Notes under the pieces: generated by a model
Database searches by the model: none
What the model saw: the letters and a program-made list of their open reading frames with translations, nothing else
Told to the model about the DNA's origin: nothing
NCBI GenBank assembly: GCA_026390635.1
Contig: JAPLFO010000139.1
Span: forward strand, 34,333 to 98,332
Source of the DNA: Ignavibacteriales bacterium
Lineage (GTDB): Bacteria; Bacteroidota; Ignavibacteria; UBA10030; UBA8401
Direction: 5' to 3'
DNA length: 64,000 nucleotides
Translations under genes and position numbers: made by a program
Shown: positions 5,377 through 40,676 of the stretch, in pieces
How positions within the stretch are numbered: position 1 is the stretch's first letter
Layout of the letters: every line of letters begins with the position of its first letter

Positions 5377-5486
5377 GAACCTGCCCTTGGTATAGTTATT
5401 TGTATCCTAAAAATATAAGAGATTTCCACACCGAAGCAAGAACCAATTGCTTTTGAATCTTCAGGCGAATTGGATATATTTGGTAC

Positions 5487-6884: not shown

Positions 6885-6913
6885 AGAAACCGTATGTTTC
6901 ACGTGAAACAAAC

Positions 6914-8803: not shown

Positions 8804-8804
8804 G

Positions 8805-9527
8805 ATGTTCCACGTGAAACCGGACATCGAGCTTGTGCTCACACAAAATGGTCTTTCGTTTCAAACATCGCAGGTGCAACAACTGCACCGATATGTTGAG
8901 ATGCTTCTCGACTGGAACAAAAAGATCAATCTGATATCCCGAAAGGATGAAGAGTTGGTGTGGACAAACCATATACTGCTCTCCATGTCCTTTGCGTGCA
9001 TGTTTGAATTCCCCAGTGGAACATCCGTTCTCGACATGGGAACCGGGGGCGGGCTACCGGGCATTCCCCTCAGTATTGTTTTTCCGGAGACGCAATTTCT
9101 TCTTGTAGATTCAGTGCGGAAAAAAATTTCTGCTGTAGGGGAAATGATACAAGCGCTTGGCTTGAACAATGCAAGCACTGTTTGGGGCCGGGCAGAGGAC
9201 CTTTCCGTGACTCGCGGCTTCGCTCCCTTTGATTCCGTTATTGCCAGATCTGTCTCTTCGATAACAAACATCACAACTTGGTCGTTTCCGTTATTGCGAA
9301 AGGACTCCTGCGATACCGTGCAATCACCCTTAACGCGAAACAGGCCACGCCTTCCGTCTCCCGCAATCATTTCCTTGAAGGGGGGTGATGTCAGCGCCGA
9401 AATAGTCGAGACGCAAAAGGAACATCCCCGTGCATCAATCGAAGTGATGGATCTTTCCTTCCCGGGTAGTGAATATCTTCTAAATCAGGAAAAGAAGTTC
9501 GTCATTGTGCGCGAGAAACCGCTTTGA
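8805..9527 (+). CDS. rsmG: 16S rRNA (guanine527-N7)-methyltransferase RsmG (GidB)
   Basis: 240 aa with the SAM motif LDMGTGGGLPGIPL. Third gene of the conserved mnmE-mnmG-rsmG set. Confidence 0.85.
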   Translation: MFHVKPDIELVLTQNGLSFQTSQVQQLHRYVEMLLDWNKKINLISRKDEELVWTNHILLSMSFACMFEFPSGTSVLDMGTGGGLPGIPLSIVFPETQFLLVDSVRKKISAVGEMIQALGLNNASTVWGRAEDLSVTRGFAPFDSVIARSVSSITNITTWSFPLLRKDSCDTVQSPLTRNRPRLPSPAIISLKGGDVSAEIVETQKEHPRASIEVMDLSFPGSEYLLNQEKKFVIVREKPL

Positions 9528-9582
9528 TAAGTCACCCAAAATGCGTAATTTTTACGATTCCTCATAACATTCAGGATGCCTC

Positions 9583-10542
9583 TTGGAACAGACAAATCCC
9601 GTTTTTGAGCAACTCAAACACCTCACCACCGAGCAACGCAATCCAGCAAGCATGGATATTGACGCACGCTCCATTACCGATGTTCTCACTATTATCAACA
9701 ACGACGACATCAAGGTTGCCTATGCCGTTCAAGAGGAAATCCCGTATATCGCCAGAGCCGTAGAGCTTGTCGTTTATGCTTTCAAGCAGGGTGGACGATT
9801 GCTCTATGTTGGCGCCGGCACAAGTGGGCGCCTTGGCGTGCTTGATGCGGCCGAATGTCCACCAACGTATGGTAGCGACCCGGAGATGGTTCAGGGAATG
9901 ATTGCCGGCGGCGAGAAGGCCATGTTCAGGGCGCAGGAGGGAGCGGAAGATCGGGAGGAAAGTGGCGCGGCAGATATTGACGCTAAAGATGTTTCTTCCA
10001 AAGATGTTGTGTGCGGGATTGCGGCAAGTCTCCGCACACCGTATGTTATCGGCGCGGTGAAGCGCGCAAAAGAGCGCGGCGCTCAAACGCTTTATGTGAC
10101 CACAAATCCGCGCGACAGGTTCTCTCTTCCCGAATATCAATCCCTCGCACAGGCAATAGATATTCCAATATGCACCGTTGTGGGACCAGAGGTTGTCATG
10201 GGATCCACGCGTATGAAATCCGGTACGGCGCAGAAGCTGGTACTTAATATGATCACCACCTGTTCGATGATTCGCCTCGGCAAGGTGTACGAGAACATGA
10301 TGATCGACCTCCAGATGACAAATTTGAAGCTGAGGGAACGGGCAAAAAAAATAGTTATGACAATTACCGGCGCCTCGTATGAGGAAGCCGCTGCCGCATT
10401 AGACGCTGCGAATGGACACGTGAAGAGCGCCTTGGTAATGATCAAGACCGGTGTTTCATATGAAGAGGCTCGTACCCGCCTAGCAAGGGCTGATGGATTC
10501 GTCCGCGCCGCAATCGAGGGGAAAGAGTATTCGTCTCTTTGA
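9583..10542 (+). CDS. murQ: N-acetylmuramic acid 6-phosphate etherase
   Basis: 319 aa SIS-domain protein collinear with E. coli MurQ (…GGRLLYVGAGTSGRLGVLDAAECPPTYG…). Confidence 0.85.
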   Translation: MEQTNPVFEQLKHLTTEQRNPASMDIDARSITDVLTIINNDDIKVAYAVQEEIPYIARAVELVVYAFKQGGRLLYVGAGTSGRLGVLDAAECPPTYGSDPEMVQGMIAGGEKAMFRAQEGAEDREESGAADIDAKDVSSKDVVCGIAASLRTPYVIGAVKRAKERGAQTLYVTTNPRDRFSLPEYQSLAQAIDIPICTVVGPEVVMGSTRMKSGTAQKLVLNMITTCSMIRLGKVYENMMIDLQMTNLKLRERAKKIVMTITGASYEEAAAALDAANGHVKSALVMIKTGVSYEEARTRLARADGFVRAAIEGKEYSSL

Positions 10543-10567
10543 ACAAACATCTTTTAGAGTGTGAGCA

Positions 10568-11278
10568 ATGCAAATCCCACCCGTTTTCAACGAGACAGAC
10601 ATTCCTCCGTTTATTGGATTTCCCAAAGAAGCTCTCCAATTCCTTCGGCGTCTCAAGAAGAACAATAACCGGGAATGGTTCGGTGCCCATAAGGATGAAT
10701 TCGAAGATCTTGTTAAGGCGCCAATGGAGGCGCTGGTCACTTCGCTCCAACCCGGATTTGATACCTTTGCGCCGGATTTCGATTTGAATCCCAAGAAGGC
10801 GATTTTCCGGATCTATCGGGATGTCCGGTTCAGCAAAGACAAATCCCCATACAAGACGCATATTGCCGCCCATTTTGTGGTCGCTGGCCGGCCCAAGGGC
10901 TTGGAGGGATCCGGATACTACCTCCATATTGAACCGGGAGAGGTTTTTCTCGGTGGAGGCATCTACATTCCCGATGGCGATCAGTTGAAGAAAATTCGGC
11001 GCGCCCTCGCGGCAAGGCCGAAAGAATTTCTTGAAGTCCTCAGAAACAAGATGTTCCGAAAAGCTTTTGGCGAACTTCAGGGTGAGAAACTCCAACGCGT
11101 GCCCGCCGGATATACTCCCGACAATCCGATGGTAGAGTATCTCAAGTTGAAACAGTTTTTTGTCGGATCACAATTCAAAGACTCCGTTTGCCAAGATGAA
11201 GACTTTCTTCAACTTTGTCTTCGCACATTCGCGACAGCATCGCCATTGATAGAATTCTTGAACGACGCACTCCGCTAG
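10568..11278 (+). CDS. DUF2461 (TIGR02453) family protein
   Basis: 236 aa. The pattern …NNNREWFGAHKDEFE…YRDVRFSKDKSPYKTH… is characteristic of the conserved hypothetical family TIGR02453. Confidence 0.55.
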   Translation: MQIPPVFNETDIPPFIGFPKEALQFLRRLKKNNNREWFGAHKDEFEDLVKAPMEALVTSLQPGFDTFAPDFDLNPKKAIFRIYRDVRFSKDKSPYKTHIAAHFVVAGRPKGLEGSGYYLHIEPGEVFLGGGIYIPDGDQLKKIRRALAARPKEFLEVLRNKMFRKAFGELQGEKLQRVPAGYTPDNPMVEYLKLKQFFVGSQFKDSVCQDEDFLQLCLRTFATASPLIEFLNDALR

Positions 11279-11296
11279 CATTCTGCCGAGGTCCGA

Positions 11297-11893
11297 TTGC
11301 CGAGTCATCATCATCGGTACATTCTGCTTTTTAAGCCGTTCAATGTGCTTTCCCAGTTTACCGACAAAGAGGGGCGCTCAACACTTGCGTTGTTTGGCCC
11401 ATTTCCCAAAGAGGTCTATCCGGTCGGACGGCTTGACTTTGACAGCGAGGGACTGCTCCTGCTGACAGATGATACGGGATTGACCCACCGGCTGCTTGAA
11501 CCTCGTTTCGGTCATCCCCGCACTTATTGGGTGCAGGTTGAGGGAATTCCGACAGAGGATGCGTTGCGCCAGCTTCGCAGCGGCGTTATGATTCAAGATC
11601 AAAAAACTCTCCCCGCTGAAGCGCGAATTCTGCCGCTCGATCCCGCGTTCCCTGAACGGAGCGAACCGATCCGCGTACGGAAAAATATTATGACTCAGTG
11701 GATCGAATTGGTACTCCGCGAAGGTAGAAATCGACAGGTAAGGAAAATGACCGCTGCCGTCGGCTACTCGACACTTCGCATTGTCCGGGTCAGAATAGGA
11801 AACGTGGAGATCGGAGGATTGCAGCCCGGTGAACACCGGGAGCTGACTTCCGCAGAAATTCATTCTCTTCGACATTCAGTTCAACTTTCATAA
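11297..11893 (+). CDS. rRNA pseudouridine synthase (RsuA/RluE family)
   Basis: 198 aa with YPVGRLDFDSEGLLLLTDD (catalytic Asp motif of the RsuA/RluB/RluE family) and no S4 domain, so it is RluE-like. Confidence 0.7.
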   Translation: MPSHHHRYILLFKPFNVLSQFTDKEGRSTLALFGPFPKEVYPVGRLDFDSEGLLLLTDDTGLTHRLLEPRFGHPRTYWVQVEGIPTEDALRQLRSGVMIQDQKTLPAEARILPLDPAFPERSEPIRVRKNIMTQWIELVLREGRNRQVRKMTAAVGYSTLRIVRVRIGNVEIGGLQPGEHRELTSAEIHSLRHSVQLS

Positions 11894-11923
11894 ATCATCA
11901 CAATCCCCATGGAGGGGGCTTTC

Positions 11924-13261
11924 ATGAAATTGGTTCTCACTTCGTTCCTGCTATTCGCCGTCGGAGCTGTTGTCGCCGGAACGCCGCTCAATATTCCGTT
12001 CTAGAAATACGTTCTGCCGAACGGTGTCAACGTTATTCTTCACGAAGATCATTCTGTTCCAATTGTCTCTGTGAACGTCTGGTATCATGTCGGATCCAGC
12101 AGGGAGAAGCTGGGTAGAACGGGGTTTGCCCATCTCTTCGAGCACATGATGTTTCAGGGATCAGAACATGTCGATAAGGGTGGGCTCTTCGGAAAAATCC
12201 AGGATGCCGGTGGAACGCTGAACGGTTCAACCACCAATGATCGGACAAATTATTTTGAAACTGTTCCGAGTCAATTCCTTGAACTCGCACTCTGGCTTGA
12301 AGCTGATCGAATGGGATTTTTGCTTCCGTCCATGAATCAATCCAAACTCGACAATCAGCGGGACGTGGTCAAGAATGAGCGGCGTCAGAGCTATGATAAT
12401 CAACCCTATGGCCGTGCCGACGAAACGCTTTCGGCCATGATGTACGATGCTTCGCATCCATACGGCTAGCCCGTCATTGGATCGATGGCTGACCTGAGTG
12501 CGGCTTCTCTCGTCGATGTCAAGGATTTCTTCACACTGTATTACGCACTGAACAATGCCAGTCTCTGCGTTGCCGGAGACTTCAATCCCTCGCAAGCAAA
12601 AGAATGGGTCACAAAGTATTTCGGGAGCATCGCAAGGGGAAACGATGTGGCGCGAATTGAAATAGAGCAACCGGCAAAGAACGCTGCAAAGCGGGACATT
12701 ATGGAAGACCGCGTTCAATTGCCCCACCTGTATGTTGCCTGGCACTCCACGCCGTTGTCCGGAAAAGATGATGCAACGCTCGACGTTCTTGCGGATGTTC
12801 TTGCCGGCGGCAAGAACTCGCGATTCTACAAGACGCTGGTCTATGACAAACAAATTGCGTAGGATGTCGTTGCATATCAATACAGCCGCGAACGCGCCGG
12901 CGCCTTTCACATCGAAATCACCGCAAAGCCCGGAATCAGCCTGGCGGACGTCGAAAAAATCATGCGCGATGAAATTGCAAATGTGCAAAAGAATGGTGTA
13001 ACTGATCGCGAGGTCCAGCACGCGCGAAACGGTATTCGTTCTCAATTCGTTTTCCGGCTTCAATCCGTCGCCGGAAAATCCGACCAACTGAATCACTTCA
13101 ACGTCATGTGGGGAGATCCCGGCATGATCAACAAAGATCTTGCCCTGTACGACGGAATTACTCCCGAACAGGTACAAAATGCTGCAAAGAAGTACCGGAC
13201 TCCGAACACAATGGTTCTGAGCATTGTGCCAACGGGAAAACGGGAACTTGGCGCTCAATAA
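11924..13261 (+). pseudogene. M16 (pitrilysin-family) zinc peptidase, reading frame interrupted by three in-frame TAG codons
   Basis: A single frame is collinear with M16 peptidases for 446 codons (HLFEHMMFQGS = HxxEH zinc site, ...NERRQSYDNQPYG...). TAG codons at 12002-12004, 12467-12469 and 12860-12862 interrupt it, with no frameshifts. The RBS GGAGGGGG precedes the ATG at 11924. Confidence 0.7.
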
Positions 13262-13299
13262 CTTCCGACGATCATCACATGACCATGGAGTATGAACTC

Positions 13300-14738
13300 A
13301 TGAAATCGATAATGGTATTTTCATTTGTTGCGGTTCTCTGTGTCCCCGTCCTTGTTGCGCAAATAGACCGCAGCAAGGCGCCGGCACCACAACCCACACC
13401 ATCTATTTCACTTCCTAAAATTCAACGTACTGCACTTGCTAATGGCGCGACACTGATTGCTGTAGAGCATCATGAACTTCCCATTGTTCGGGTCCGCTTG
13501 ATTCTCAAATCGGGATCGTCGCTCGACCCCTCCGGCAAGGCCGGTGTTGCCAGTCTGACCGCACAAATGGTGCGTGAGGGAACCGAGAAGCGAACGTCTC
13601 TTCAGATAGATGATGAATTTGATTTTCTCGGCGCGAACTTCTTCATCACGTCTTCGGGAGATGCAACAACCGCATCTTTGCAGACACTGAAAGAGCCTCT
13701 CGATCGGTCTCTCGATGTGTTTGCGGATGTACTTTCACATCCATCGTTTCCATCGGCCGAATGGACGCGCGTTCAGCAACAACACCTGACAGGATTGTTG
13801 CAGCAAAAAGACCGCCCCACCACTGTTGCAAACAATGTGTTTGCGGCGTTGCTGTACGGCTCCGGCCATCCCTATGGCAGACCGGAAGACGGTACCGATC
13901 GAACCGTGCAATCTATTCTACTCGACGATGTGAGGGATTTCTATGCCAGGAATTACGTTTCGTTGAATGCGACAACCATCGTTGTCGGCGATATTGCGTT
14001 GGCTGAAATTCAATCTGCGCTTGATAAGCATTTTGCCGATTGGAAAAGTGCAACCGCACCGGGGGCCCGGTATTCGAACAGCCCGGCAATTGACGGCACA
14101 AAGATATTTCTTGTCGATAAGCCCAAACGGCTCAATCGGCTCAATCGGAAATCCGCATCGGTCATCTTGGCGCACCGCGCAATAGCGGCGACTACTATGC
14201 CCTGGCGATCATGAATATGATTCTCGGCGGACAATTCAGTTCCCGCATCAATCTGAATTTGCGCGAGGCAAAGGGCTATACATACGGCGTCCGTTCCGGA
14301 TTCACATGGAGAAGGGAAGTCGGTCCGTTTATCGCATCCTCCGGAGTGAAGATAGCAATCACAGACAGTGCTGTGATTGAAATTATGAGAGAATTGCACC
14401 GCATCAGAAAAGAAGATGTGGCCCCTGCAGAACTGGAACTTGCAAAAAATGGAATTATTCGAGGACAGCCACAGGGACTTGAAACGCCAATGCAGATCGT
14501 ACAGCAACTTTCGATGCTTGTGTTTTTTGGTTTGCCGGACACCTATTTCGACAACTTTGTTCAGAATATCGAACAGGTCGCCGCTGCCGATGTTCGCCGT
14601 GTTGCTGAAAAATATCCACGGCCGGATGCGGCAAATATTGTGATTGTGGGGGATGTTTCCGCGATCCGTCCGGGCCTAGATGCTCTGGGCTATGGAACGG
14701 TGACGATCGTGGACGTTGACGGAAAATCGATACAATAA
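13300..14738 (+). pseudogene. M16 peptidase non-catalytic partner subunit (signal peptide), disrupted by a -1 frameshift
   Basis: M16 fold without HxxEH (…VEHHELPIVRV…). The frame switches from the 13108 frame to the 14211 frame around 14122-14127 (…IFLVDKP | QTAQSAQSEIRIGHLGAPRNSGDYYALAIMNMILGG…). A 9-bp tandem duplication cggctcaat x2 sits at 14128-14145. Confidence 0.65.
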
Positions 14739-29697: not shown

Positions 29698-29930
29698 TGT
29701 TGATAACCTTTCCCCATCCACACCCTGTTTTTGCCCTTGACTTTGTAGCCCGAAATTGAATCTTTTTGGGATGTGAATAACTGGTAAATAAGTCTATCGA
29801 TGTGTTATATGTCAATAAGTTAGCGCGGTTTATCTTATGTTATTAATTTTTTGATCGGTCTAAGTTATTAACTAACGCTTTTCCTCTTTGTTGATAAGTA
29901 TGTTGATAACTTTACGGGAACTGTGAATAA
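29698..29930. promoter_or_regulatory. DnaA-box cluster in the rpmH/dnaA divergent intergenic region (dnaA autoregulation and/or left part of a bipartite oriC)
   Basis: 9-mers matching TTATNCACA, all in the same orientation as read on the minus strand: tgttgataa at 29698, 29889 and 29901; tgtgaataa at 29772 and 29922; ccatccaca at 29715. An AT-rich tract lies at 29760-29880. Three boxes sit within 45 nt of the dnaA ATG. Confidence 0.55.
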
Positions 29931-29933
29931 CCT

Positions 29934-31349
29934 ATGGAACATGTTACGACTTCCCATCTAAGCAGCCTAGAAACAGCGGAAGCAGGAGGGGTTTGGGAGA
30001 AATGCCTCTCTCTTGTCAAGCCACAAATTCCCACACAAAGCTACAAAACGTGGTTTGAACCCATTCGACCGGTGAAAATCGGCGAAGATGGAGAATTGGT
30101 GGTCAACGTCCCCAGCCAATTTTTTTATGAGTGGTTGGAAGAGCACTATGCGCCGTTGATAAAGAACACTATCACACAATTATTGGGCGGTTTGGGACGC
30201 CTCACGTACATCGTCGTCCCCCCGGACGAATCGGACGCTCCTGTTCCCGTACTTCTGAAGGAACGCGCCGTTGCTCCTCCCCCGCTGGTCCAGATGGAAG
30301 AGCTGCTTCCACCGATCCGTTCTCATCTGAATCCGCGTAATACCTTTGCGAATTTCATCAAGGGGGAGAGCAACCAGCTCGCAAGGGCGGCGGCAACAGC
30401 GGTTGCAAATAATCCCGGAGGAACATCTTTCAATCCCCTCGTCATCTACGGGGGAACCGGATTGGGAAAGACGCATCTTGTTCAGGCAATCGGCAACAGC
30501 TCACTGGAATCTGGAAAGGCAAAACGCGTCGATTATGTCTCCAGCGAGAAATTCATGGTCGAGTTCGTGGAGTCCATCAAGTCCGACACAATGGCACACT
30601 TTTCGAACTACTATCGAAGCATGGATATTTTAATAGTCGACGACATCCAGTTCCTTGCCGGAAAAGAAAAGACACAGGATAGTTTCTTCCATACATTTAA
30701 CACGCTTCACCAGTTGGGAAAACAGATTGTCCTTTCATCGGACAGGGCTCCCAAAGATTTAAAGGGACTCGATGACCGTCTCTTGTCCCGATTTCAGTGG
30801 GGATTGACGGCTGACATCCAGCCGCCGGATCTGGAAACCAGAACAGCCATTCTGCGCAAGAAGTGCGATGATGACAGTATTGATATGCCGCAGGAAGTCT
30901 TGGATTTTATGGCGGCAAATGTCACTTCCAATATCCGCGAATTGGAGGGATGTTATATCAGCCTTCTTGCAAAGTCATCTCTCGAAAACAGAGAGATCAA
31001 CATCGATCTTGCACGTGATGTGCTCCGAATCGTCGTCAATGATGTCAGAATGCCGATTACTGTCGATGCTATTCAACGCACCGTGGCAGAGTACTATGAC
31101 ATTCCTACGGATCTGTTGCGTGCAAAAACCCGGCGACAGGAGATTGTTACTGCCCGCCAGGCGGCGATGTATCTTGCAAAGGAAATGACCAATTGTTCGC
31201 TGAAGACCATTGGGCTTCATTTTGGAGGCCGCGACCACAGCACGGTAATTCATGCATACCAATGCGTCGAGGATCAGCTCAAGACAGATTCCACCTTCAG
31301 AGACACGCTCGATCAGATGCGGAAAAAGATCACCAACACTTCTCGCTGA
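29934..31349 (+). CDS. dnaA: chromosomal replication initiator protein DnaA
   Basis: 471 aa with AAA+ (GGTGLGKTHL), sensor motifs and a C-terminal DNA-binding domain (…HSTVIHA…). Confidence 0.95.
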   Translation: MEHVTTSHLSSLETAEAGGVWEKCLSLVKPQIPTQSYKTWFEPIRPVKIGEDGELVVNVPSQFFYEWLEEHYAPLIKNTITQLLGGLGRLTYIVVPPDESDAPVPVLLKERAVAPPPLVQMEELLPPIRSHLNPRNTFANFIKGESNQLARAAATAVANNPGGTSFNPLVIYGGTGLGKTHLVQAIGNSSLESGKAKRVDYVSSEKFMVEFVESIKSDTMAHFSNYYRSMDILIVDDIQFLAGKEKTQDSFFHTFNTLHQLGKQIVLSSDRAPKDLKGLDDRLLSRFQWGLTADIQPPDLETRTAILRKKCDDDSIDMPQEVLDFMAANVTSNIRELEGCYISLLAKSSLENREINIDLARDVLRIVVNDVRMPITVDAIQRTVAEYYDIPTDLLRAKTRRQEIVTARQAAMYLAKEMTNCSLKTIGLHFGGRDHSTVIHAYQCVEDQLKTDSTFRDTLDQMRKKITNTSR

Positions 31350-31391
31350 GACCGAGGAACCTTCCAACCACGTTGAATTCTTTGCCGCTCA

Positions 31392-31770
31392 TTCTGTGGA
31401 ATTACTACTATTTCCTTCTTTCTTAATTCTTTTTCCGGTGTTCATAATTCTGTGGATACCTTGTTGGCCACTGTGAATCCATTGTGAACATCTTCTATTA
31501 TATTGAGCGTGTGCATTCCCAACCGGCGTTTTTTGTGGATAACATAACATTTATCCACGTTGCATTCACAAATTGAGAACTTCCAAATGTATGTTTTCAC
31601 CCCATGGTTACTGCATAATTATTCAATCTTAAAAAGATTGTCCACATATCCACCGTAATACTAATCTTCTTCTTTCTTTTATTCTTAAATCTATTATATA
31701 TATAGATACGACTGAGTATAGAAATTACGTTACTATATATCGATTACCCTATCATTTTCAGGAGAATTAT
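31392..31770. other. candidate oriC: DnaA-box cluster plus AT-rich DNA unwinding element
   Basis: A perfect box tgtggataa at 31534-31542. Near-perfect boxes at 31451-31459 (tgtggatac), 31551-31559 (ttatccacg) and 31638-31646 (ttgtccaca), plus weaker ones at 31392, 31471, 31483 and 31564. A very AT-rich block at 31656-31770 (…ttattcttaaatctattatatatatagatacgact…) lies immediately downstream of dnaA. Confidence 0.6.
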
Positions 31771-32739
31771 ATGTGGACTGCAGCTATTCTTGCCGCATTT
31801 GTCTGTATATGGATAGTGTTTGAATATAGACTTCGTAAGCCCGATCAGTTGGTGCTTCGCGAAACTGCCAAAGGACTGACAATCCGCACGGGACGTTTCT
31901 ATCCGCGTCATTTCAGTCTGGCAATGTCCCGTACCACTCACTCTTTTGCCGTCACCGTGGATGCTTCAGCAAAAGGAAACCTCGATGTGCGCGTGAAAAT
32001 TGCCGTTTCAGTTACAGCGTCCACAGATAATATTTTCGCTTTAATGCGGGTAGGAGGCTGGAATTCCGGAGCGGTTGAAAAGGCAGCGAAAGAACTGGAA
32101 TCGATTTTCATCGGAACAGTAAAAGGATATACCGAACATTTGGATATTGAAAGCATTTCGTCTGCGCAGATTGCACAACATTTGATGCAAAGTGCAAAAA
32201 ATGTTCGGGAGACATTGGGTCTGGAAATTCTATCATTGTCGATACTTTCTTCCGAACCGGTGAACATACAGATATCGGAAGCGCTGCGGCAGAGAGAAAG
32301 CGCGCGCATTCTCGAACAAACAGAAATGCTGAATCAACAGGCACGCGTTGCCACCGCAAGAGCACGTGCTGCTGCCGATGAGGAGATAGCGTTGGTTGAA
32401 CATCAACGCGAGGTGAAACAGATTGAACTGAAGACAGCTTCTTTCGCAAAAGAGTCCCACCTACAATCTCTGCGTGTGGAAGAAGAGATAAAACACACAA
32501 AACTGCGTCTGGAGATGGAAAAGAAAGAACTCGACCTTCTCAAAGGAAGTCCCGAGTTGCTGATGTTGACACCACAGGCGGCGAGGTTGGCCGAAGCAAG
32601 CCAGGGACTGAAAAACGCGCGAACAGTCGTCTCCGTTGGATCAAAGGAAATTGCACAAGGAGTTGAACTGTTTGGTATTTTTCAAAAAGTATTCGAACAA
32701 GCCGTCACGACATACAAGCAGAAATCAAAAGACAAATAA
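31771..32739 (+). CDS. SPFH/band-7 (flotillin-like) membrane protein
   Basis: 322 aa with an N-terminal TM helix, an SPFH domain, then an Ala/Glu-rich coiled-coil (…ARARAAADEEIALVEHQREVKQIELK…). Its stop TAA is immediately followed by the ATG of the next gene. Confidence 0.75.
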   Translation: MWTAAILAAFVCIWIVFEYRLRKPDQLVLRETAKGLTIRTGRFYPRHFSLAMSRTTHSFAVTVDASAKGNLDVRVKIAVSVTASTDNIFALMRVGGWNSGAVEKAAKELESIFIGTVKGYTEHLDIESISSAQIAQHLMQSAKNVRETLGLEILSLSILSSEPVNIQISEALRQRESARILEQTEMLNQQARVATARARAAADEEIALVEHQREVKQIELKTASFAKESHLQSLRVEEEIKHTKLRLEMEKKELDLLKGSPELLMLTPQAARLAEASQGLKNARTVVSVGSKEIAQGVELFGIFQKVFEQAVTTYKQKSKDK

Positions 32740-35700
32740 ATGACGGTCTCTTCATTTCATCTCAAACCGCTGAAAGCGGCGAAGGTATCGGAAATAAGCG
32801 AAGCAACGGCGTCATCCGCCGTGGCACCGGCGGACCGTGTCAATTTCCATATAGGAAATCCAGTGCAGGATACGCGCCTGACGTCGGCGTACTTGCGCAT
32901 GGTTCTTGGAGTGGATATCAACCGCGAAGAACTTGCCGATTCCAATGTGCCGCAATTGCTGCACTTTCTGGGATGGAAGGAGAAGGACGAGGAGGTTATT
33001 GCTTTCTATAGGACGCTAATCCAACGAAGTTCGCCGTACACTCCCCGTGGAGGATTCTCACGCACAGCTCCGCATTCCCTGGTGAAAACTTTTCAGCAGT
33101 GGCTGATGAACCAGCAGGAGCCGCTGGTGTATGATGGAGGAGAAACAAGCGGGCGGCGCGAAATGTCGTTGGGATCCGGCGGAATCGCGGAAGCACTTCG
33201 TGTCTTTTTTCACATGTTGACGCTTTGTGTGGAGATGCGTCCGGTGCACGTTTTTGTTTATGGGACAAGTCTGCCGGCCCCCGTGATGGGGTTTCAGGAG
33301 TTGTTGGTAGAGTATTTGCCGGACGACGAAAAAAAAGCGTTGGAATTTCTTGAGCACGCTCTTGAAGAAAATCCATTTCCTTCCTATGTCGTCCTAGGAC
33401 GAATTTGCAGAGAAGAAACACGGCGCATGCTCCGGTTGTTGAGTATGCGGCACCCATTGTATTTCGTCGAGGCGAATGATGCACCCAACCATCTCTCGCT
33501 GTCGCGCGAAGCAAAACTGGCGCAGAGGGTGATTCGATTTCTATCGGCCGGCATTTTTTCTTCGCGATTCTCCGGACTTTCCACCGTCTTTGTTGCCGGA
33601 CCGTATGAATATCTCGAACTTTTCGACACGATCCATTTTCAGCTCAAAGGAACGCCGTCAGCGTCCGAAATAGAGCTGCTCTCGTATGCCATGACGCATG
33701 ACTTCAGCGCCGTTCCATCCGAGCACATTTCTTCCGACGTTATTATCGACGCTCCTTATGAGGGATTCGGTTTCGGGAACGATCGTGCGTTGCCGCAGAT
33801 CGCCTTCCGCACAGAAGAACGACTTGGCCGCCTCGTTGCGGGGGCGGGGGTAAAACTGAAAGGACTTGCCGATTCGGTTTATCGGCGGACGGAAACTATC
33901 GGTTCCCACATCGGCGATCTTCCATTTATGCAGCCGTTCGATTCGTTTTCCGGAAGGGAAGCAAACAAACTTCTGGAAGACGCACTTCGTTTCATCGATA
34001 GCTCCGAATGGCATGCAGAGCTCACACAGAATTTTCTTGTTGCATTTACGAAGCATCATCCTGAATACCGGTTGAAGAGATGCTGTGCCGCAAGCGGCTC
34101 GTCGCGTACAGCATTGAGTCTGATCGGATTCCACTGCGGGATTTCAGACGTCATTGTTCCAGATCTGAGCTGGACGTACGAGCACTGTTTTCCACGCGTG
34201 GATGCCGTTCCATTGACGGAAGCATTCGATCTTGATGCGGAAGCAATGATTGCCGCTGCCGCCGAAAAGCTTGCGGTCGACCCATCATGGAAAAAACGCG
34301 GGGCGATTGTCCTCAACAATCCGCACAACGCGACGGGAAAAGTATTCAGCGATTCGGCGATCAGGAAACTGATCACGTGGCTGCTGACAAACGGGATCGC
34401 CGTCATCGACGATTTGTCCTATCAAAATGTTGCGCCAAGGGAAGAGTGGGCAGAAGTGCCGACATTGCGTCAAACGGCGGACGAATTGGTGCGCGGCGGC
34501 ATGGTGACAAGCGCACAAACAGATCGTGTAATTACTGTGCACTCCCTGTCGAAAACAGATTGCTTGGCCGGAGCACGCCTTTCGGTTGTGGAACTACGGG
34601 ATGAGCATCTCTTTGAGAAATTCAAGACGATCAACGCAGGAATACCCGCCAACAGCGGTGCAATATTTCTGACGTATTTGTTCTATCGCAATACCAGGGA
34701 ATCGGTGCGCGCGTACTGGCGGCTGCGAAACGCCATATTCCTTGAACGCTCCGCCGCGTTGCAGGCGGCGGCTGAAAATCTTCCAGCAGAACGGAATCCT
34801 TGCGAAATATCCATTATTCCTCCCACCGGCAGCATGTATCCCCTCCTGCGTGTCGGAAAACTTCCTTCGGGACTTTCGCTGGACTGGCTGGCATCAGGTC
34901 TTGCTCGGCAGGGAATCGGGCTGGTTCCTCTCAGTGCATTTGCGCGAACAGAAAAAGGATTTGAGACAGCGCGCCGCACATTTCGTCTGACGCTGGGCGG
35001 AGTAGATGCGGCGGACACCCTGCTGAAAAAAACACGGCGGGTTCTGATCGATCTGAATCATCTGATCGCGGAGGAGGCCGGGCACTACAATCGTACGGAG
35101 CCGCGGCGTTCGTTGCTTGTCCGGCATTCATCGGGAACCGATTTGTGGGATTCGGTCGAACTACGCGTGCTGGAAAACGCGAAGCAATTGGCAGAGAGCC
35201 GGCGCTTCCTGAAAGGAGAGAAGAACTCCGAATCCCTCCGCGGTCACTTTGCCGAGCGGCTTTCCCGCTTCCGGCAGCGCTTTGTGGATCGGCACGATAC
35301 AGCGACAGCTCTTGTGCAGCGTGCACAAGAAAGCAATGGGCGCACACTGAGTGCTGTTCTCGAGAGGGAATTTCATAAAGAGCCGCTTGCCGTGCGCGAG
35401 GAGACATTCCGTCAACGACTCTTCGACCGGACCGTTCATCCGACGCAAATGTACTCTATTCGTTCTGAAGCGGCGTGGGACGTTCTGATTCATGCGACGT
35501 TGCGCGGAAGAAATCCGTCTGAAACGCTGGTGCAGTGTGCGGCGGAGGAAATGCTTCGCGAGTACTACGGCATGAACGTTGCCATCAATTCCGGGGACGA
35601 ATCGCAGGAACTGATTATCGATCTGGATGCAATGATCGCCGCCGAACTTTCGTCCGAGCTTTGGTTCGAACCGTCGCGGGCATTTGTATCGTTCTGGGGG

Positions 35701-38298
35701 GATTGGGACGGCAGCACACGTCCTTCCGGGCAGGGACATCGATTGGTTGCTTCGGTCTTGATTGAAAATGTCACCCGGCAGTCTGCAATTCTTTCTCTTC
35801 TTTTGGCGTGCGAGCCGTCGTTGTCCATCGATCCGTCGCTCCGCACAGCGCTGGAGCACCTCCGCGAGCAGACGGTAAAATTTACGCGGCTCCTCAACAC
35901 GATCACACAACTGACGCATCAATTGGAGAAGCGATATCGCGGGATTCTTCCATTCAACGTTCGCGCAAGTGCTGCGCGGCGATTGGGTATGTCGCTGCAT
36001 CTTGCCCGCGATCCCGTGACGCTGCTGTGGCATCATAACGATCGTTTGGAACGGACAATGCTGGATCTTCGCCGCAAACGTCGCGAGATGCTGACATACT
36101 ATTTTGCGCTGAATAAAAAACTGCGGAAGGAGTTATTCAAACTTATACCCGCGATCCAGCGCAATATTCACGATCCGGCGATTGCACTGGAAGCAGGTAT
36201 GTATCGCGATTTGCTGCGGCGAATGGTTATTACGCCGCGCATCCACCAGAAAATGATTACAGCGCAGGATCAATTTGCAATCGATACAACGGTTCACAAT
36301 ATCAACGAGATCAACGAAATTGCCGGTCGTCATGGCAATCCCGGAATGGTGCTCGCGCTGCAGGTGAGCATGGCGGCAAAAGCGGAAGCACTGATTTCAC
36401 TCGACAGAAAAATGGGAGCTGCGCGCGAAACAATTTTGCGCGAACATCCGGATGCAGATCTGGCAGCGGTCCGGCTGGTGCCGTTGTTTGAGGATCTTGA
36501 TGCCGTAAGCGAGATTCCCCAATATCTGAATCGGGTCTGGGAGTATTGCCTGCAAAGCCGGCGGATGAATCAGGAACCGCGCGAACGTTTTGCGGAAATT
36601 GTGGGAGAAGTCTTTATTGCCGGATCGGACCTGAGCCAGCAAATCGGGCAAACAGCAGGATCGGCCGCATACCGACGTGCAAAAAAAGACCTTATCTTCT
36701 GGTTGGCCGAGCGCGGATTGACGGATGCCGTTCGCTTGAAGATGGGGAGCGGAGAACCGATGCAGAGGCAGGGCGGTTACTATGCAGAGTACTCCGGCGC
36801 GGCGGCATTTCTCCATACGCCCGAAATAGAGCAGCGACTCGTCAGCCAGCTTCATGCATCCACCCGAAAGAGTACGGAATACGCAACGACGCCGTTGATG
36901 GGCGTGTTTGCCGGAGGAGATCTCCGCACATTTCAATCCGCAATTTCGGAACAGCTTCGTTACCTTTCAACCTCCGATCTCTCGCGGCTGCTCCATCATA
37001 TTCGATCGACGCAGCAAACACACCGCAGCGATCTCGTTCGGGCCAGCGAATCATTTGCCGAGACGCGCCTGAAAGGAACGTCGCACGGAACACAGGAACT
37101 GGAGCGCCTCACCATCGGTACGCAGGAAAAGGCATTCGAAGAATTCCTGCCGTTGGTAACCAAGAATTTCCGCCAGATATTGTACGGAGCCGATGACGAT
37201 GTCGTCGGCATTCATCTGATCTCGTACTTCATCGCGAGATCGTCACCAATTCTACGAGATCGTCCGACCGTCCGTCCCAGCCGGACCATGTCCGCAGACC
37301 GCGGACAGAAGATCCTGGAACGCATTGCCGAAACGATTCCATCGTCGCGTTACGGAAGCATGCTGCGGGCGATTGCACATAACCAGGCCCAGACAACCGT
37401 GCTGGGTGTCAATCAATTGACCACCGGATTGTTTCGTGCGCTCGATACGGTTTCGCGGACGGAAACAGGAGAGCGTTCCGTCGAAGCGGCGGCGGTGGAA
37501 CGGATTCTTCCCCATCTTCCGGTCTACGAAATTCTGCAGACGCTCCGATTGTATCACGATCCCGCGCTTCACTATTTGCAGAGAATAGAACGCGCTTTTC
37601 CTGCGGGCAACTCTGCGTTTCTCGCGCTGCGTGAAGACAATGATGCCATGGCAGGATTTGTCGGCATCTTTCAAAAGGAGCTACTCCGGCGTCATGGTGT
37701 CGACGTTCCCGATTTTTTTGACGGTGATACATTTATTCCAGATCTCTTGCCGACACTTCGTCCCGATCTCGCGGTGCTGCTGCAGCCGGATCTCTTCAAC
37801 ACAAATGCCGAGATATTGCGGGAATCCATTCACGGACCTGTTCCATCCTCCTGGACGAAGTCGGTCGATGAACTGCTGGCCGCGCCCCGGAAGATTGCTG
37901 CATGGCGTGAAAACATCTGGCAGATACTGGAGCGGCCGGTATTTCAGCGCGTACAGAGTTTTGCCGAGCTTGCAATTTCGCTTCATTCACTCTCGCGGTC
38001 AACGGGCGCGCCGGAAACAGGCGGGAGCAAAAAGGGATTGAAGCTTTCTCCGGATCTTTCCCATTTCTTCCGTATTGCCCGATCAGACGACGACATGCGC
38101 CAGTTCCTTGCGGCCTCGCTGGAATATCTTTCGTCCATGTCCGGCGGCATGGTGGAGGTGCCCATCAGTATTGTGCGCGCGATGAAAGAAGTCGAGAGGA
38201 TTGCCAAAATTGAGGAGCAGGTGCTGTTGCCCAAAGAGCAGGATGTGCTGCGTTTCTATCTGCTGCAAATAGCCCGGCTCACCGGCGAGAACGGATAA
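32740..38298 (+). CDS. giant (1852 aa) multidomain protein: class I/II aminotransferase-like domain with a large insertion, fused to a full-length divergent phosphoenolpyruvate carboxylase-like domain
   Basis: The aminotransferase domain shows the N-terminal RVNFHIGNPVQDT (as in NLGIGEPDF), AIVLNNPHNATGKVF (NPxNPTG), IAVIDDLSYQN (Asp/Tyr), VHSLSKTDCLAGARLS (PLP Lys and Arg at +8) and a C-terminal small domain ending FRLTLGG at about residue 760. A roughly 420-aa insertion sits between the first and second motifs. The PEPC-like domain shows TVHPTQ at residue 900 (TAHPTE), VPLFEDLDAV at 1247 (VPLFETIEDL), IAGSDLSQQIGQTAGSAAYRRAKKDL at 1293 (GYSDSxKDAG…WAxYxAQ), LKMGSGEPMQRQGG at 1333 (FHGRGGSxGRGG, with His/Arg replaced) and a C-terminal …RLTGENG* (PEPC ends …RNTG). 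Spacing between these motifs matches E. coli Ppc. Confidence 0.65.
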   Translation: MTVSSFHLKPLKAAKVSEISEATASSAVAPADRVNFHIGNPVQDTRLTSAYLRMVLGVDINREELADSNVPQLLHFLGWKEKDEEVIAFYRTLIQRSSPYTPRGGFSRTAPHSLVKTFQQWLMNQQEPLVYDGGETSGRREMSLGSGGIAEALRVFFHMLTLCVEMRPVHVFVYGTSLPAPVMGFQELLVEYLPDDEKKALEFLEHALEENPFPSYVVLGRICREETRRMLRLLSMRHPLYFVEANDAPNHLSLSREAKLAQRVIRFLSAGIFSSRFSGLSTVFVAGPYEYLELFDTIHFQLKGTPSASEIELLSYAMTHDFSAVPSEHISSDVIIDAPYEGFGFGNDRALPQIAFRTEERLGRLVAGAGVKLKGLADSVYRRTETIGSHIGDLPFMQPFDSFSGREANKLLEDALRFIDSSEWHAELTQNFLVAFTKHHPEYRLKRCCAASGSSRTALSLIGFHCGISDVIVPDLSWTYEHCFPRVDAVPLTEAFDLDAEAMIAAAAEKLAVDPSWKKRGAIVLNNPHNATGKVFSDSAIRKLITWLLTNGIAVIDDLSYQNVAPREEWAEVPTLRQTADELVRGGMVTSAQTDRVITVHSLSKTDCLAGARLSVVELRDEHLFEKFKTINAGIPANSGAIFLTYLFYRNTRESVRAYWRLRNAIFLERSAALQAAAENLPAERNPCEISIIPPTGSMYPLLRVGKLPSGLSLDWLASGLARQGIGLVPLSAFARTEKGFETARRTFRLTLGGVDAADTLLKKTRRVLIDLNHLIAEEAGHYNRTEPRRSLLVRHSSGTDLWDSVELRVLENAKQLAESRRFLKGEKNSESLRGHFAERLSRFRQRFVDRHDTATALVQRAQESNGRTLSAVLEREFHKEPLAVREETFRQRLFDRTVHPTQMYSIRSEAAWDVLIHATLRGRNPSETLVQCAAEEMLREYYGMNVAINSGDESQELIIDLDAMIAAELSSELWFEPSRAFVSFWGDWDGSTRPSGQGHRLVASVLIENVTRQSAILSLLLACEPSLSIDPSLRTALEHLREQTVKFTRLLNTITQLTHQLEKRYRGILPFNVRASAARRLGMSLHLARDPVTLLWHHNDRLERTMLDLRRKRREMLTYYFALNKKLRKELFKLIPAIQRNIHDPAIALEAGMYRDLLRRMVITPRIHQKMITAQDQFAIDTTVHNINEINEIAGRHGNPGMVLALQVSMAAKAEALISLDRKMGAARETILREHPDADLAAVRLVPLFEDLDAVSEIPQYLNRVWEYCLQSRRMNQEPRERFAEIVGEVFIAGSDLSQQIGQTAGSAAYRRAKKDLIFWLAERGLTDAVRLKMGSGEPMQRQGGYYAEYSGAAAFLHTPEIEQRLVSQLHASTRKSTEYATTPLMGVFAGGDLRTFQSAISEQLRYLSTSDLSRLLHHIRSTQQTHRSDLVRASESFAETRLKGTSHGTQELERLTIGTQEKAFEEFLPLVTKNFRQILYGADDDVVGIHLISYFIARSSPILRDRPTVRPSRTMSADRGQKILERIAETIPSSRYGSMLRAIAHNQAQTTVLGVNQLTTGLFRALDTVSRTETGERSVEAAAVERILPHLPVYEILQTLRLYHDPALHYLQRIERAFPAGNSAFLALREDNDAMAGFVGIFQKELLRRHGVDVPDFFDGDTFIPDLLPTLRPDLAVLLQPDLFNTNAEILRESIHGPVPSSWTKSVDELLAAPRKIAAWRENIWQILERPVFQRVQSFAELAISLHSLSRSTGAPETGGSKKGLKLSPDLSHFFRIARSDDDMRQFLAASLEYLSSMSGGMVEVPISIVRAMKEVERIAKIEEQVLLPKEQDVLRFYLLQIARLTGENG

Positions 38299-38393: not shown

Positions 38394-40676
38394 TCATGTT
38401 TGCGGTGACCGTGCTTCCGCAGCGGGAAGCTCAATGAAGAATTTACTGCCAACCCCTTCTTGCGATTCCACCCATACGGTGCCGTTGTGACGTTCTACAA
38501 TCTTCTTCACGAGCGGCAGGCCAAGTCCCTCACCCTGAATAATTCCGCGCGGGTTCAGGCGGTGAAAGAGTTCCCACACCTTCTGCCTGTGCTCGGCGGC
38601 AATTCCGATTCCGTTGTCTTCAACAGAGTAAACGATGCTCTCCCGGTGAAAACTGGCGCCAATTGTGATGACGGGATGACGCTCCGACGCGGCGTATTTC
38701 AGGGCATTGTCGATAAGATTGGAAAACACCTGGTTGATTTGACCGGAATCTCCGTGGCAGGGAGGAAGGTTTCCCGCGATAATGGAAGCATGCGCATTTT
38801 CTATTTGATATTTTAGAGAGTCAACAACATTTTCGAGCAGCTGATTCATGTTGATATACTCAGCGTGAAGATCGATGCGCCCACTGCGCGAGAATCGGAG
38901 GAGTCCACTGATGAGGGAATCCATTTTCTTGCCGCTGCTTTGAATGAAACGCAATGACGTTTCGATATCGTCGGTCAGCGTGGGCAGCGTTTTTGTCTTG
39001 AATGCGTCGGGAGGTAGAAGCGTCTGAAGAAGCTGCGAGAATTCGCGAAAAGAACGCGCAAGCTGCTCGCCAAAGCCAAGGATGTTGATTATAGGAGAAC
39101 GAAGGTCGTGTGATGTAACATACACAACATTTTCCAAATCCTGGTTTTTTTGTGCAAGCTGCACCAGAAGCGCCCCACGCTCGGTCTCGGCAAACCGCCT
39201 GTCTGTAACATCCTGCGTTGTGCCGAACACATCATACACATTGTCCCGCGCGATAGATTCGGCGACAGTGCGCAGGTGGCGGAGGCCGGATTCTCCAGCG
39301 GGAAGAGCGCGATATTCCACACCCATGGGCATTCCCTCATTCAGCGCAGAACGGAATGCCGAGTCCACCATCGGACGATCCTCCTCAACGACCGTTGCAA
39401 GAAAGTCTTTCAGAAAAAGATGGGCATCAGCTGGATATCCCAAAAGACGGCACATCTCTGTAGAGGAATCGAAGAGACCGCTGCGTCCGTCAAAATGCCA
39501 GCTACCGATATGGGCGATGGATTGAGCGCGGTGCAGCTGTGCTTCACTTTCGCGCAGAGCCTCTTCTGCCTTGTTTCGTCGAATGATGTTCATGCGCTGT
39601 ACAAAAATTGCAAGCGCGAGAAATAATATTATCACCGCCGCCGTATTGATGACCGTACGATGGACTTCGTAGAATCCGGGAGGGCGGTTGATCAAAACAA
39701 CGCCGGCGGGAAGCCGCTGATTTGTAAGACCATAGCGCTCCAGGGCGTTGTAGTCCAACACTAAACGATACGGGTTATTGACAACAACCGGAATAAGTGA
39801 CGCATGCTCTCCAGCCAGGATGCGAAGCGCGAGCTCTGCGGCGCGCATTGCATGAGGACGTCCGCCCAAAACGCTGCCACCGACAGCTCCAAATCCCATC
39901 CGCTCACCGTGAACGGCATATACGGGTACCGACGAAGCCTTGGCAAGTATGCGCGAGATATCCGGATGATTAAAGAGCTCACCGGAATTATCCCTGCTGA
40001 ACGACAGCGACAGGAGGATGGTGCCGTCAGAGAGACGGCGGACTGTATCAAGGATCTGTCCGATCGAGAGCGGCGGGAGATAGCGTACATGAATTCCAGA
40101 ATTCAATCCACGTAACCGTTCTTCCGCTTCCCGGCGAGTGGAAAGACCGGTACTGGTATAGTCATGAAGAACAACAATGTTGCGGATCTCAGGCTGCAGC
40201 GCAAGGGCAAGAGAAACGGTGCCGATGATATCCAGATATTCTGCGACACCGGTAATCTGTTGTATTCCCGTCACCATCTCCGGTCGATAGCCATTAATGC
40301 CCATGAAAACAATGGGGATGCCGGGAAAGAGTTGATCCCGAAACCTCACTGCGAAATCAAGAGCTGGATTGTCGAGAACAAAAACGATCGAAACCGGAAC
40401 GAGAGACAACTTTGTTTTTAGAAGATTCTTTGCAGCTTCAAAATGTTCGTAGGTCGGAAAGTGTTTGCAGTCAAGATACTCGATCATCGGATCGATTGGA
40501 ATTCTTGCAGCGGAAAAAGATTCAAGAATTCCGTTCACTTCTTCGTCAGACCAGGAATAGCCGTAATGATACGAATTCAGAATCAGAATGCTTTTCGTGG
40601 TTGATGGAACAGCAGAAGAGGTGGAGAGCAGAAGGAGGCTCATTCCCGCTATCAGACAGATGCGACATCGCCACAT
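38394..40676 (-). CDS. sensor histidine kinase with periplasmic ABC-type substrate-binding-protein-like sensor domain
   Basis: 760 aa with a signal peptide, a roughly 300-aa periplasmic binding-protein-like domain, a TM helix, a PAS-like region, HisKA (VTSHDLRSP) and HATPase_c (…DNGIGIAAEH…GLGLPLVK…). No response regulator is adjacent. Confidence 0.8.
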   Translation of the reverse strand: MWRCRICLIAGMSLLLLSTSSAVPSTTKSILILNSYHYGYSWSDEEVNGILESFSAARIPIDPMIEYLDCKHFPTYEHFEAAKNLLKTKLSLVPVSIVFVLDNPALDFAVRFRDQLFPGIPIVFMGINGYRPEMVTGIQQITGVAEYLDIIGTVSLALALQPEIRNIVVLHDYTSTGLSTRREAEERLRGLNSGIHVRYLPPLSIGQILDTVRRLSDGTILLSLSFSRDNSGELFNHPDISRILAKASSVPVYAVHGERMGFGAVGGSVLGGRPHAMRAAELALRILAGEHASLIPVVVNNPYRLVLDYNALERYGLTNQRLPAGVVLINRPPGFYEVHRTVINTAAVIILFLALAIFVQRMNIIRRNKAEEALRESEAQLHRAQSIAHIGSWHFDGRSGLFDSSTEMCRLLGYPADAHLFLKDFLATVVEEDRPMVDSAFRSALNEGMPMGVEYRALPAGESGLRHLRTVAESIARDNVYDVFGTTQDVTDRRFAETERGALLVQLAQKNQDLENVVYVTSHDLRSPIINILGFGEQLARSFREFSQLLQTLLPPDAFKTKTLPTLTDDIETSLRFIQSSGKKMDSLISGLLRFSRSGRIDLHAEYINMNQLLENVVDSLKYQIENAHASIIAGNLPPCHGDSGQINQVFSNLIDNALKYAASERHPVITIGASFHRESIVYSVEDNGIGIAAEHRQKVWELFHRLNPRGIIQGEGLGLPLVKKIVERHNGTVWVESQEGVGSKFFIELPAAEARSPQT

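Follow-up and report, generated by a model that had tools for sequence, protein, structure and literature searches.

We describe a two-gene module in a 64,000-nucleotide stretch of DNA from an Ignavibacteriales bacterium (GenBank assembly GCA_026390635.1, contig JAPLFO010000139.1, positions 34,333 to 98,332 of the forward strand). This whole stretch is called the window, and nucleotide coordinates are those of the window. The upstream gene encodes a protein that, judged from its sequence family, is a divergent SPFH (Band 7) protein, and the downstream gene encodes a large cytoplasmic polypeptide of 1852 amino acids (aa) with three domains. These are a degenerate aminotransferase-like domain, a class I aminotransferase and a C-terminal domain that resembles phosphoenolpyruvate (PEP) carboxylase (PEPC) in its predicted structure. 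We are highly confident of this three-domain architecture. Channelling of PEP to aspartate is the most economical reading of it and a plausible one. We give a probability of about 0.45 to the proposal that this single protein converts PEP through oxaloacetate to aspartate, with its two aminotransferase-like domains forming an in-chain pseudo-dimer and the SPFH protein acting as a tether.

Organisation of the two genes and the large protein

The two open reading frames (ORFs) and the domains of the large protein, of which two are related to enzymes dependent on pyridoxal phosphate (PLP), are placed as follows.

31771-32739, + strand, small SPFH-like gene, 322 aa
32740-38298, + strand, large three-domain gene, 1852 aa, intact and uninterrupted
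32827-33729, + strand, degenerate aminotransferase-like (fold type I PLP-enzyme-like) domain, aa ~30-330
34009-35001, + strand, predicted catalytic class I aminotransferase domain, aa 424-754 (Pfam PF00155)
35317-38295, + strand, PEPC-like domain, aa ~860-1852, an eight-stranded barrel with large helical decorations

An earlier sequence-only reading of the window had described an uninterrupted 1852-aa ORF behind an SPFH/flotillin-like gene, and both ORFs are present as stated. The motifs that it named were all found (GNP, NPHNATG, DDLSY, SLSK, TVHPTQ, VPLFE, AGSDLSQ and KMGSGEPMQRQGG). Its central claim, that an aminotransferase is joined to a PEPC-fold domain in one true polypeptide, is borne out by conserved homologues and by structure prediction.

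Predicted PEPC fold of the C-terminal domain

Residues 771-859 form a helical linker, behind which the PEPC-like domain begins. A model of aa 771-1852 was built by AlphaFold without templates and from family sequences only, and it had a predicted local distance difference test score (pLDDT) of 82.8 and a predicted template modelling score (pTM) of 0.86. As the sequence-only reading had suggested, the model was compared with known structures. The top 41 matches of Foldseek in the PDB were all PEPCs (E 5e-12 to 1e-7, probability 1.00), including the enzymes of Arabidopsis, E. coli (1jqn), maize and Flaveria and the archaeal-type 3odm; thereafter the matches had E values of 6e-4 or worse. Because the top 41 matches were all PEPCs, the resemblance goes well beyond that of a generic barrel. 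The model's matches to the two types of PEPC stand well clear of those to other barrels, and 90% of the archaeal-type chain is covered. The structural alignment to PEPC takes in 471-582 of the 1082 residues, with long extra helical regions outside it. In the predicted structure, the three-dimensional fold of PEPC, that is, the eight-stranded barrel together with the PEPC-specific helices, is present in the C-terminal domain. The case for homology with PEPC rests on this predicted structure, the sequence evidence alone giving p ~0.005.

In the AlphaFold model the eight strands of the barrel lead to, or contain, the following motifs.

aa 895-898, strand leading to HPT
aa 983-986, strand leading to WGDWDG
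aa 1162-1169, strand containing PRIHQ
aa 1206-1210, strand leading to (QV)SM
aa 1245-1250, strand leading to (PLF)E
aa 1290-1293, strand leading to AGSD
aa 1332-1335, strand leading to GSGE...R
aa 1395-1398, strand leading to (LRTF)QS

Two further motifs, DRPTVR and LRAI, come later in the chain than these eight. The counterparts of PEPC motifs are located as follows.

35431-35448, + strand, TVHPTQ (aa 898-903), counterpart of PEPC TAHPTE (E. coli His138); T898, H900 and P901 invariant in 37 members
36481-36492, + strand, PLFE (in VPLFE, aa 1247-1251), counterpart of PEPC PLFE (E. coli Glu506, metal ligand); invariant
36619-36639, + strand, AGSDLSQ (aa 1294-1300), counterpart of PEPC GYSDSAK; Asp543 kept as D1297, Lys546 replaced by the invariant Q1300
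36739-36777, + strand, KMGSGEPMQRQGG (aa 1334-1346), counterpart of the PEPC glycine-rich loop FHGRGGSIGRGG
37258-37275, + strand, DRPTVR, counterpart of PEPC SRPAKR (E. coli Arg699 and Arg703); R1508, P1509 and R1512 invariant
37363-37374, + strand, LRAI, counterpart of PEPC LRAIPW (E. coli Arg713); invariant

Of the glycine-rich loop, Arg587 survives in KMGSGEPMQRQGG as R1343, with M or L in place of His579 and S in place of Arg581. H900, E1251, D1297, R1508 and R1543 never vary among 37 diverse members of the family, and R1343 is present in 36; by a weak profile alignment, not by structural superposition, these kept residues are the counterparts of His138, Glu506, Asp543, Arg587, Arg699 and Arg713. 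The roles of these residues in PEPC are established: His138 is catalytic, Glu506 and Asp543 are metal ligands, Arg587 belongs to the lid, and Arg699 and Arg713 bind phosphate (cf. Kai, Matsumura and Izui 2003).

At its C-terminus the large protein reads RLTGENG (aa 1846-1852, 38275-38295), where G-E-N-G is near-invariant and the terminal Gly is invariant in the family. All 11 canonical PEPCs compared also terminate in Gly, as ...N(T/S)G or ...(G/W)TG. The greedy alignment described below left the two C-termini unpaired, so the resemblance at the terminal Gly is a tentative one.

The two aminotransferase-like domains

The middle domain was matched by Pfam Aminotran_1_2 (PF00155) over aa 424-754, with 45.3 bits (the cut-off is 19.7) and E 8.9e-12, and its score rose to 49.8 bits when it was taken in isolation. 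It contains NPHNATG (aa 527-533), DDLSY (aa 557-561) and SLSK (aa 602-605), and these align with the Thermus enzyme 2dou as LNNPHNATG/LNYPNNPTG, IDDLSY/IHDNPY and SLSKTDCLAGARL/SLSKSYNLAGFRL. No variation was seen among 34 homologues at N530, D557/D558, Y561, K605, R613 and R749. One codon is set apart here.

34552-34554, + strand, codon of K605, the predicted PLP Schiff-base lysine

Since the residues of the PLP site are invariant and the motifs align to 2dou, the middle domain looks catalytically intact.

The region upstream gave no Pfam match at all (aa 1-423). An AlphaFold model of aa 1-430, made from a 103-sequence alignment, had a pLDDT of 85.4 and showed seven strands alternating with helices. 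At the top of its Foldseek list this model had class I aminotransferases and nothing else (probability 1.00, E 2e-9 to 1e-7, 11-17% identity). There is no conserved Lys between the sixth and seventh strands, and the only invariant Lys of the domain, K303, follows the last strand. On the model, this N-terminal copy is probably inactive and non-catalytic. A comparison of the N-terminal with the catalytic aminotransferase domain by hhalign gave no match, so that the duplication is either ancient or the two copies are of separate origin.

The sequence-only reading had taken the first 780 residues as one aminotransferase with an inserted region. The aminotransferase itself stands, with its Pfam match at aa 424-754, but the 'inserted region' is a second, degenerate aminotransferase-like domain. 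The GNP motif (aa 39-41) sits in this degenerate domain, outside the catalytic aminotransferase. A chimera of aa 25-62 and aa 424-775 left the Pfam match unextended toward the start of the profile, and in AlphaFold and Foldseek the N-terminal region folds as an aminotransferase-like domain of its own. The idea of one aminotransferase with an insertion was therefore rejected.

Distribution and integrity of the large protein

A search of 5.8 billion proteins returned an identical entry (P0001), named 'pyridoxal phosphate-dependent aminotransferase [Ignavibacteriales bacterium]', and more than 100 full-length homologues at 52-79% identity. The best 120 homologues listed are 1816-1938 aa long, with a query coverage of 97-100%. 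A scan of one genome per species found 348 with relatives, and they belong to Ignavibacteriota, Chloroflexota and Acidobacteriota. Among the carriers in Ignavibacteriota are Melioribacter roseus, Rosettibacter primus and Stygiobacter electus, all in culture; those in Chloroflexota include Anaerolineales, and those in Acidobacteriota include Bryobacterales and Solibacteraceae. In the family alignment the mean column identity is 63-65% across 1850 residues. Because the full-length architecture recurs across isolate genomes and assemblies made independently from many samples, an assembly chimera, for which the sequence-only reading had proposed a check, is excluded. The search that it proposed for homologues of the fusion and of the SPFH neighbour showed both to be conserved, the one in the 348 species genomes and the other in all 78 loci described below.

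The C-terminal 1082 residues were also compared by phmmer (HMMER) with the complete set of 1.84 billion cluster representatives, and only 221 proteins matched. In the long matches the C-terminal domain always stands at the end of proteins of 1690-1950 aa, and the remaining matches are fragment-like. One match, P0155, has 994 aa, begins with MRRRF... and aligns with the PEPC-like domain only (38% identity, query aa 94-1082). It may be a stand-alone C-terminal domain, which would bear on the origin of the fusion, or a truncated gene call.

Orthologues from loci L004-L083, which come from all three phyla, are about 51-61% identical to the protein of the window. The lack of a clear fall in identity from one phylum to another hints that the two-gene module has been transferred horizontally.

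The SPFH partner and its pairing with the large gene

The 322-aa protein has a hydrophobic helix at aa 1-17, an SPFH-like region at about aa 50-190, a charged heptad-like stretch at aa 170-260 and a conserved C-terminal segment, the anchor and the coiled-coil-like stretch having been read from the sequence by eye. Two of its parts are located as follows.

31771-31821, + strand, predicted N-terminal membrane anchor MWTAAILAAFVCIWIVF, followed by the basic residues EYRLRKPDQ
32542-32631, + strand, most conserved segment of the protein, KGSPELLMLTPQAARLAEASQGLKNARTVV (aa 258-287)

By the positive-inside rule, the basic residues behind the anchor suggest that the SPFH domain lies on the cytoplasmic side. 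Columns 257-285 are invariant or near-invariant in 34 orthologues of three phyla, and we infer that the segment KGSPELLMLTPQAARLAEASQGLKNARTVV is a candidate contact surface.

The sequence-only reading had called the small gene SPFH/flotillin-like. The copy in the window gave no match to Pfam Band_7 (PF01145) at E up to 10, but four orthologues at 57-60% identity (P0282, P0284, P0288 and P0318) pass its cut-off of 23.6 with 25.4-27.7 bits, over residues ~46-191. Two others fell below the cut-off (P0356, 22.5 bits; P0275, 20.9 bits) and P0348 had no match. A search of the PDB with the profile of this protein family found no SPFH match. One NCBI record names the partner 'SPFH domain-containing protein'.

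As the sequence-only reading had indicated, the two genes of the window are in tight contact: the junction reads ...AAATAAATGACG, and the stop codon TAA (32737-32739) abuts the ATG at 32740. In a tblastn search, every locus with sufficient flank (78 of 78) had the SPFH gene as the immediate upstream neighbour of the large one. The spacing differs among them. In L001 the SPFH gene (7036-8001) and the large gene (8001-13607) overlap by 1 nucleotide (nt), and in L002 they are called at 2405-3370 and 3830-9376, with a gap of about 460 nt. Because the gap varies across loci, the TAAATG junction is true of the window and not a conserved feature: gene adjacency is universal among the loci examined, and tight spacing is not.

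PADLOC gave only a weak match of the SPFH-like protein (aa 127-272) to PbeC (E 1e-3, 15.7 bits). An anti-phage defence system was not accepted on this basis, and the match is probably a coiled-coil or SPFH-type similarity and no sign of a defence role.

Proposed function and alternative explanations

In the proposed mechanism, the barrel of the C-terminal domain would bind PEP with Mg2+ and carboxylate it with bicarbonate to give oxaloacetate. The adjacent aminotransferase site would turn this unstable product at once into aspartate, with glutamate, for example, as the amino donor. The active sites of class I aminotransferases are shared between the subunits of an obligate dimer, and for this reason the dead N-terminal copy most probably pairs with the live copy in the same chain as a pseudo-dimer, which would leave one transaminase site per PEPC-like site. 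The SPFH partner would most likely serve to tether the large enzyme to the cytoplasmic side of the membrane or to organise it there. The metabolic map of Melioribacter roseus lists Pyc, Mae and Pck and no Ppc (PMC3534657); with Ppc missing from that map of central metabolism, no canonical PEPC appears to compete with the protein there.

A number of observations weigh against this proposal. M. roseus already has other anaplerotic enzymes (PMC3534657). In the aminotransferase, all matches to NCBIfam specificity models are far below their cut-offs (the best, DapC_actino, has 33.7 bits against 355.65), so no known specificity subgroup fits, and the substrate specificity is unreadable from the sequence. 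In the C-terminal domain, six residues of PEPC are replaced: K546, H579, R581, G583, G588 and R725 correspond to Q1300, L/M1335, S1337, E1339, Q1344 and Q1551. Five of these (K546, H579, G583, G588 and R725) are invariant in 11 canonical PEPCs, and R581 was placed by motif register. None of the seven invariant signature runs of PEPC, for example GYSDS, FHG, TEQGE and LRAIPW, is found verbatim (0/7), and the counterpart of Arg396 is uncertain. With other residues in place of K546, H579 and R581 and a rebuilt glycine-rich lid, the barrel may have an altered carboxyphosphate chemistry. The sequence-only reading had spoken of a complete PEPC; the fold and the core residues are indeed kept, but since several residues invariant in the canonical enzymes are replaced, 'PEPC-like' is the more suitable term.

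Sequence searches point the same way. On aa 771-1852, a Pfam search that admitted E values up to 10 gave no match. The PEPcase match that the sequence-only reading expected is thus absent; under the refuting condition which that reading had set itself, its claim falls as far as profiles go, and it is only the predicted structure that saves it. NCBIfam gave no match to the C-terminal domain at lax thresholds either, and neither phmmer nor the family profile found a PEPC in the PDB, the family profile matching aminotransferases only. The phmmer search of the 1.84 billion representatives returned the domain's own family and no PEPC. Against E. coli Ppc, BLASTP gave E 0.4, and the family profile found nothing in that single sequence (E 0.62). 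Two profiles were then compared by hhalign, one of 37 sequences of the new domain and one of 11 PEPCs, comprising E. coli ppc and ten plasmid- or chromid-borne ppc genes of bacteria and haloarchaea. There was a single local match, of family positions 1201-1346 with E. coli 466-590 (E 0.0073, probability 5%), in which QVSM is paired with ISM, PLFE with PLFE, AGSD with GYSD and GSGEPMQRQGG with GRGGSIGRGG. Shuffled controls reached E 0.014-0.94 when shuffled by column and 0.019-0.034 by block, against the 0.0073 observed, a value not far out of their range.

A greedy alignment was colinear over family positions 860-1759 and E. coli 89-883 and gave 30 identities at the 66 columns invariant in the 11 canonical PEPCs. 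Column- and block-shuffled controls give 19-47% identities under the same alignment, and when the columns of the PEPC profile are shuffled the figure is 21-46%. The count was discarded as evidence because it is not above the column-shuffled controls. A post hoc test for colinear motifs was reached by 11 of 3000 shuffles. The hhalign E value of 0.0073 and this test lend modest support to a relation with PEPC. As the profile test failed, the C-terminal domain lies outside both PEPC sequence families, with which it has the fold and the core residues in common.

Could the same architecture serve a different chemistry? The barrel might carry out another reaction on PEP, a 2-oxo compound or an enol-phosphate, for example carboxylation of another enolate, hydrolysis of PEP to pyruvate or a reaction of the lyase or decarboxylase kind as in the PEP/pyruvate barrel superfamily. 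The aminotransferase would then work on the product or the substrate of this reaction, and the pathway would yield something other than aspartate. We regard this as possible, if on the unlikely side. It would account for the invariant replacement of K546 by Q, of H579 by L or M and of R581 by S, for the rebuilt glycine-rich lid, for the alteration of every invariant PEPC signature and for the long helical regions that leave 471-582 of 1082 residues aligned to PEPC. The E. coli PEPC mutants H138N and R587S, which hydrolyse PEP without carboxylation, show how easily the outcome of PEPC shifts. However, the counterparts of His138 and Arg587, which define the PEPC-specific steps, are invariant or near-invariant here, and PEPC, not a lyase or a kinase, is by far the best structural match. 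A specific form of the altered chemistry, which we think unlikely, would make the C-terminal domain a third lineage of the PEPC superfamily that yields a 2-oxo acid in place of oxaloacetate or alongside it, converted to an amino acid by the pseudo-dimer, with the 200-kDa enzyme as a dedicated client of an SPFH assembly. The SPFH protein would then be the first scaffold of its family devoted to a central-carbon or amino-acid enzyme and not to a protease or NfeD.

It is improbable, in our view, that the PEPC-like and N-terminal domains are non-catalytic sensors or scaffolds and that the protein is a regulated aminotransferase or the cargo of an SPFH assembly, with PEP or aspartate as an allosteric ligand. 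Such a role would fit the clearly degenerate N-terminal domain, the constant partnership with an SPFH protein of scaffold type and the strong allostery of canonical PEPC itself, but residues at the mouth of the barrel that are typical of catalysis and metal binding are strongly conserved in three phyla, and the mean column identity of 63-65% over 1850 residues exceeds what would be expected for a mere scaffold. We give hardly any weight to an artefact, whether a chimera or frameshift fusion or chance motifs combined with an over-confident structure prediction. The missing PEPC profile match and the borderline sequence statistics could be cited for it, but the same full-length architecture is present in independent assemblies, many samples and isolate genomes, and the template-free AlphaFold model matches both PEPC types above other barrels, with 90% of the archaeal-type chain covered. 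Conversion of PEP to aspartate by one protein is, in our assessment, the reading to prefer among these.

Genomic context of the module

The features that flank the gene pair in the window are as follows.

29934-31349, dnaA, upstream of the pair (Pfam Bac_DnaA, E 2e-67)
31350-31770, 420-bp spacer next to dnaA, with DnaA-box-like sites and an AT-rich stretch
38394-40676, - strand, sensor histidine kinase gene (ABC_sub_bind-like, PAS, HisKA and HATPase), convergent and downstream of the pair

Since the downstream kinase gene converges on the pair, the conserved unit consists of two genes. All ORFs of 83 loci were clustered, and no third conserved neighbour was found, the next family being present in at most 12 of the 83; a wider conserved gene cluster was thereby ruled out. 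The kinase of the window clusters with ORFs of seven other loci that carry the pair (L010, L025, L029, L033, L039, L043 and L064), which may reflect loose synteny or mere similarity of kinase domains.

The sequence-only reading had placed the pair at the edge of oriC. Four TTATCCACA-like sites lie in the spacer at 31451-31646, including the sole perfect TTATCCACA match of the window (31534-31542), and the AT-rich stretch is at ~31690-31750. Five further DnaA-box-like sites are just upstream of dnaA (29698-29930), and the whole window contains 30 such sites against 10.8 expected. These clusters on either side of dnaA suggest an origin flanking the gene, and the spacer is probably part of oriC, as context outside the conserved module. 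The clustering of sites round dnaA is thus confirmed, but the position of the pair beside it is particular to this genome: dnaA adjoins the pair in 0 of 82 other loci, and linkage to the origin was rejected as a feature of the module.

Relation to known systems and significance

PEPC belongs to the textbook enzymes, and two sequence families of it are recognised. With the bacterial and plant family (PF00311; E. coli Ppc 1jqn, maize 5vyj, Flaveria 3zge), the new domain has in common the predicted fold of barrel and helical decorations and a colinear series of motifs, T-x-HPT, D-x-DG, (I/V)SM, PLFE, SD, G-x-G...R-x-G(G), LR-x-T/x-Q, RP-x-x-R and LRAI. It differs in being only 10-13% identical and without a profile match, in a region after LRAI that is about 140 residues longer, and in being fused behind two aminotransferase-like domains and never free-standing among the long matches. 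Compared with the archaeal-type family (PEPcase_2, PF14010; Clostridium perfringens 3odm), it is twice as long, has no profile match and is fused. Like the class I aminotransferases Thermus 2dou, aspartate aminotransferase (AspAT) 1bjw, yeast Bna3 3b46 and E. coli YbdL 1u08, the middle domain keeps the Asn, Asp/Tyr, Lys and Arg of the PLP site. The N-terminal domain has the same predicted fold, but here two copies stand in tandem in each chain, the first without the Schiff-base lysine.

PEPC followed by AspAT carries out the steps of aspartate-forming C4 photosynthesis and of bacterial anaplerosis. The protein described here would combine the same two activities in the same order, in one polypeptide as opposed to the separate, unlinked proteins of those pathways. 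SPFH proteins are known from operons with a partner, HflK/HflC with FtsH and stomatin or flotillin with NfeD. The module resembles these in its small protein of anchor, SPFH domain and coiled coil and in the strictly conserved operon with one partner, a pairing known here from the genes. Its partner, however, is a giant soluble metabolic enzyme instead of a protease or NfeD, and its SPFH domain is divergent enough to escape Pfam.

The sequence-only reading had known of no family with this architecture, and the libraries agree with it: Pfam and NCBIfam leave the C-terminal ~1000 residues without a name. Literature searches on the fusion, on SPFH-aminotransferase neighbourhoods and on PEPC catalytic residues found nothing relevant. 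The fusion of an aminotransferase with a PEPC-like domain, with an SPFH partner, is described by no library or paper searched.

If the proposed reading is true, a third PEPC lineage, invisible to profiles and annotated merely as 'aminotransferase', is present in at least 348 species of three phyla. It would be a natural covalent coupling around the unstable oxaloacetate, with a dead-plus-live tandem of transaminases, and may be of interest for metabolic engineering of CO2/bicarbonate fixation and of aspartate-family products. The cultured carriers Melioribacter roseus, Stygiobacter electus and Rosettibacter primus make the module directly testable. Its invariable pairing links the poorly understood, membrane-organising SPFH family to a metabolic enzyme.

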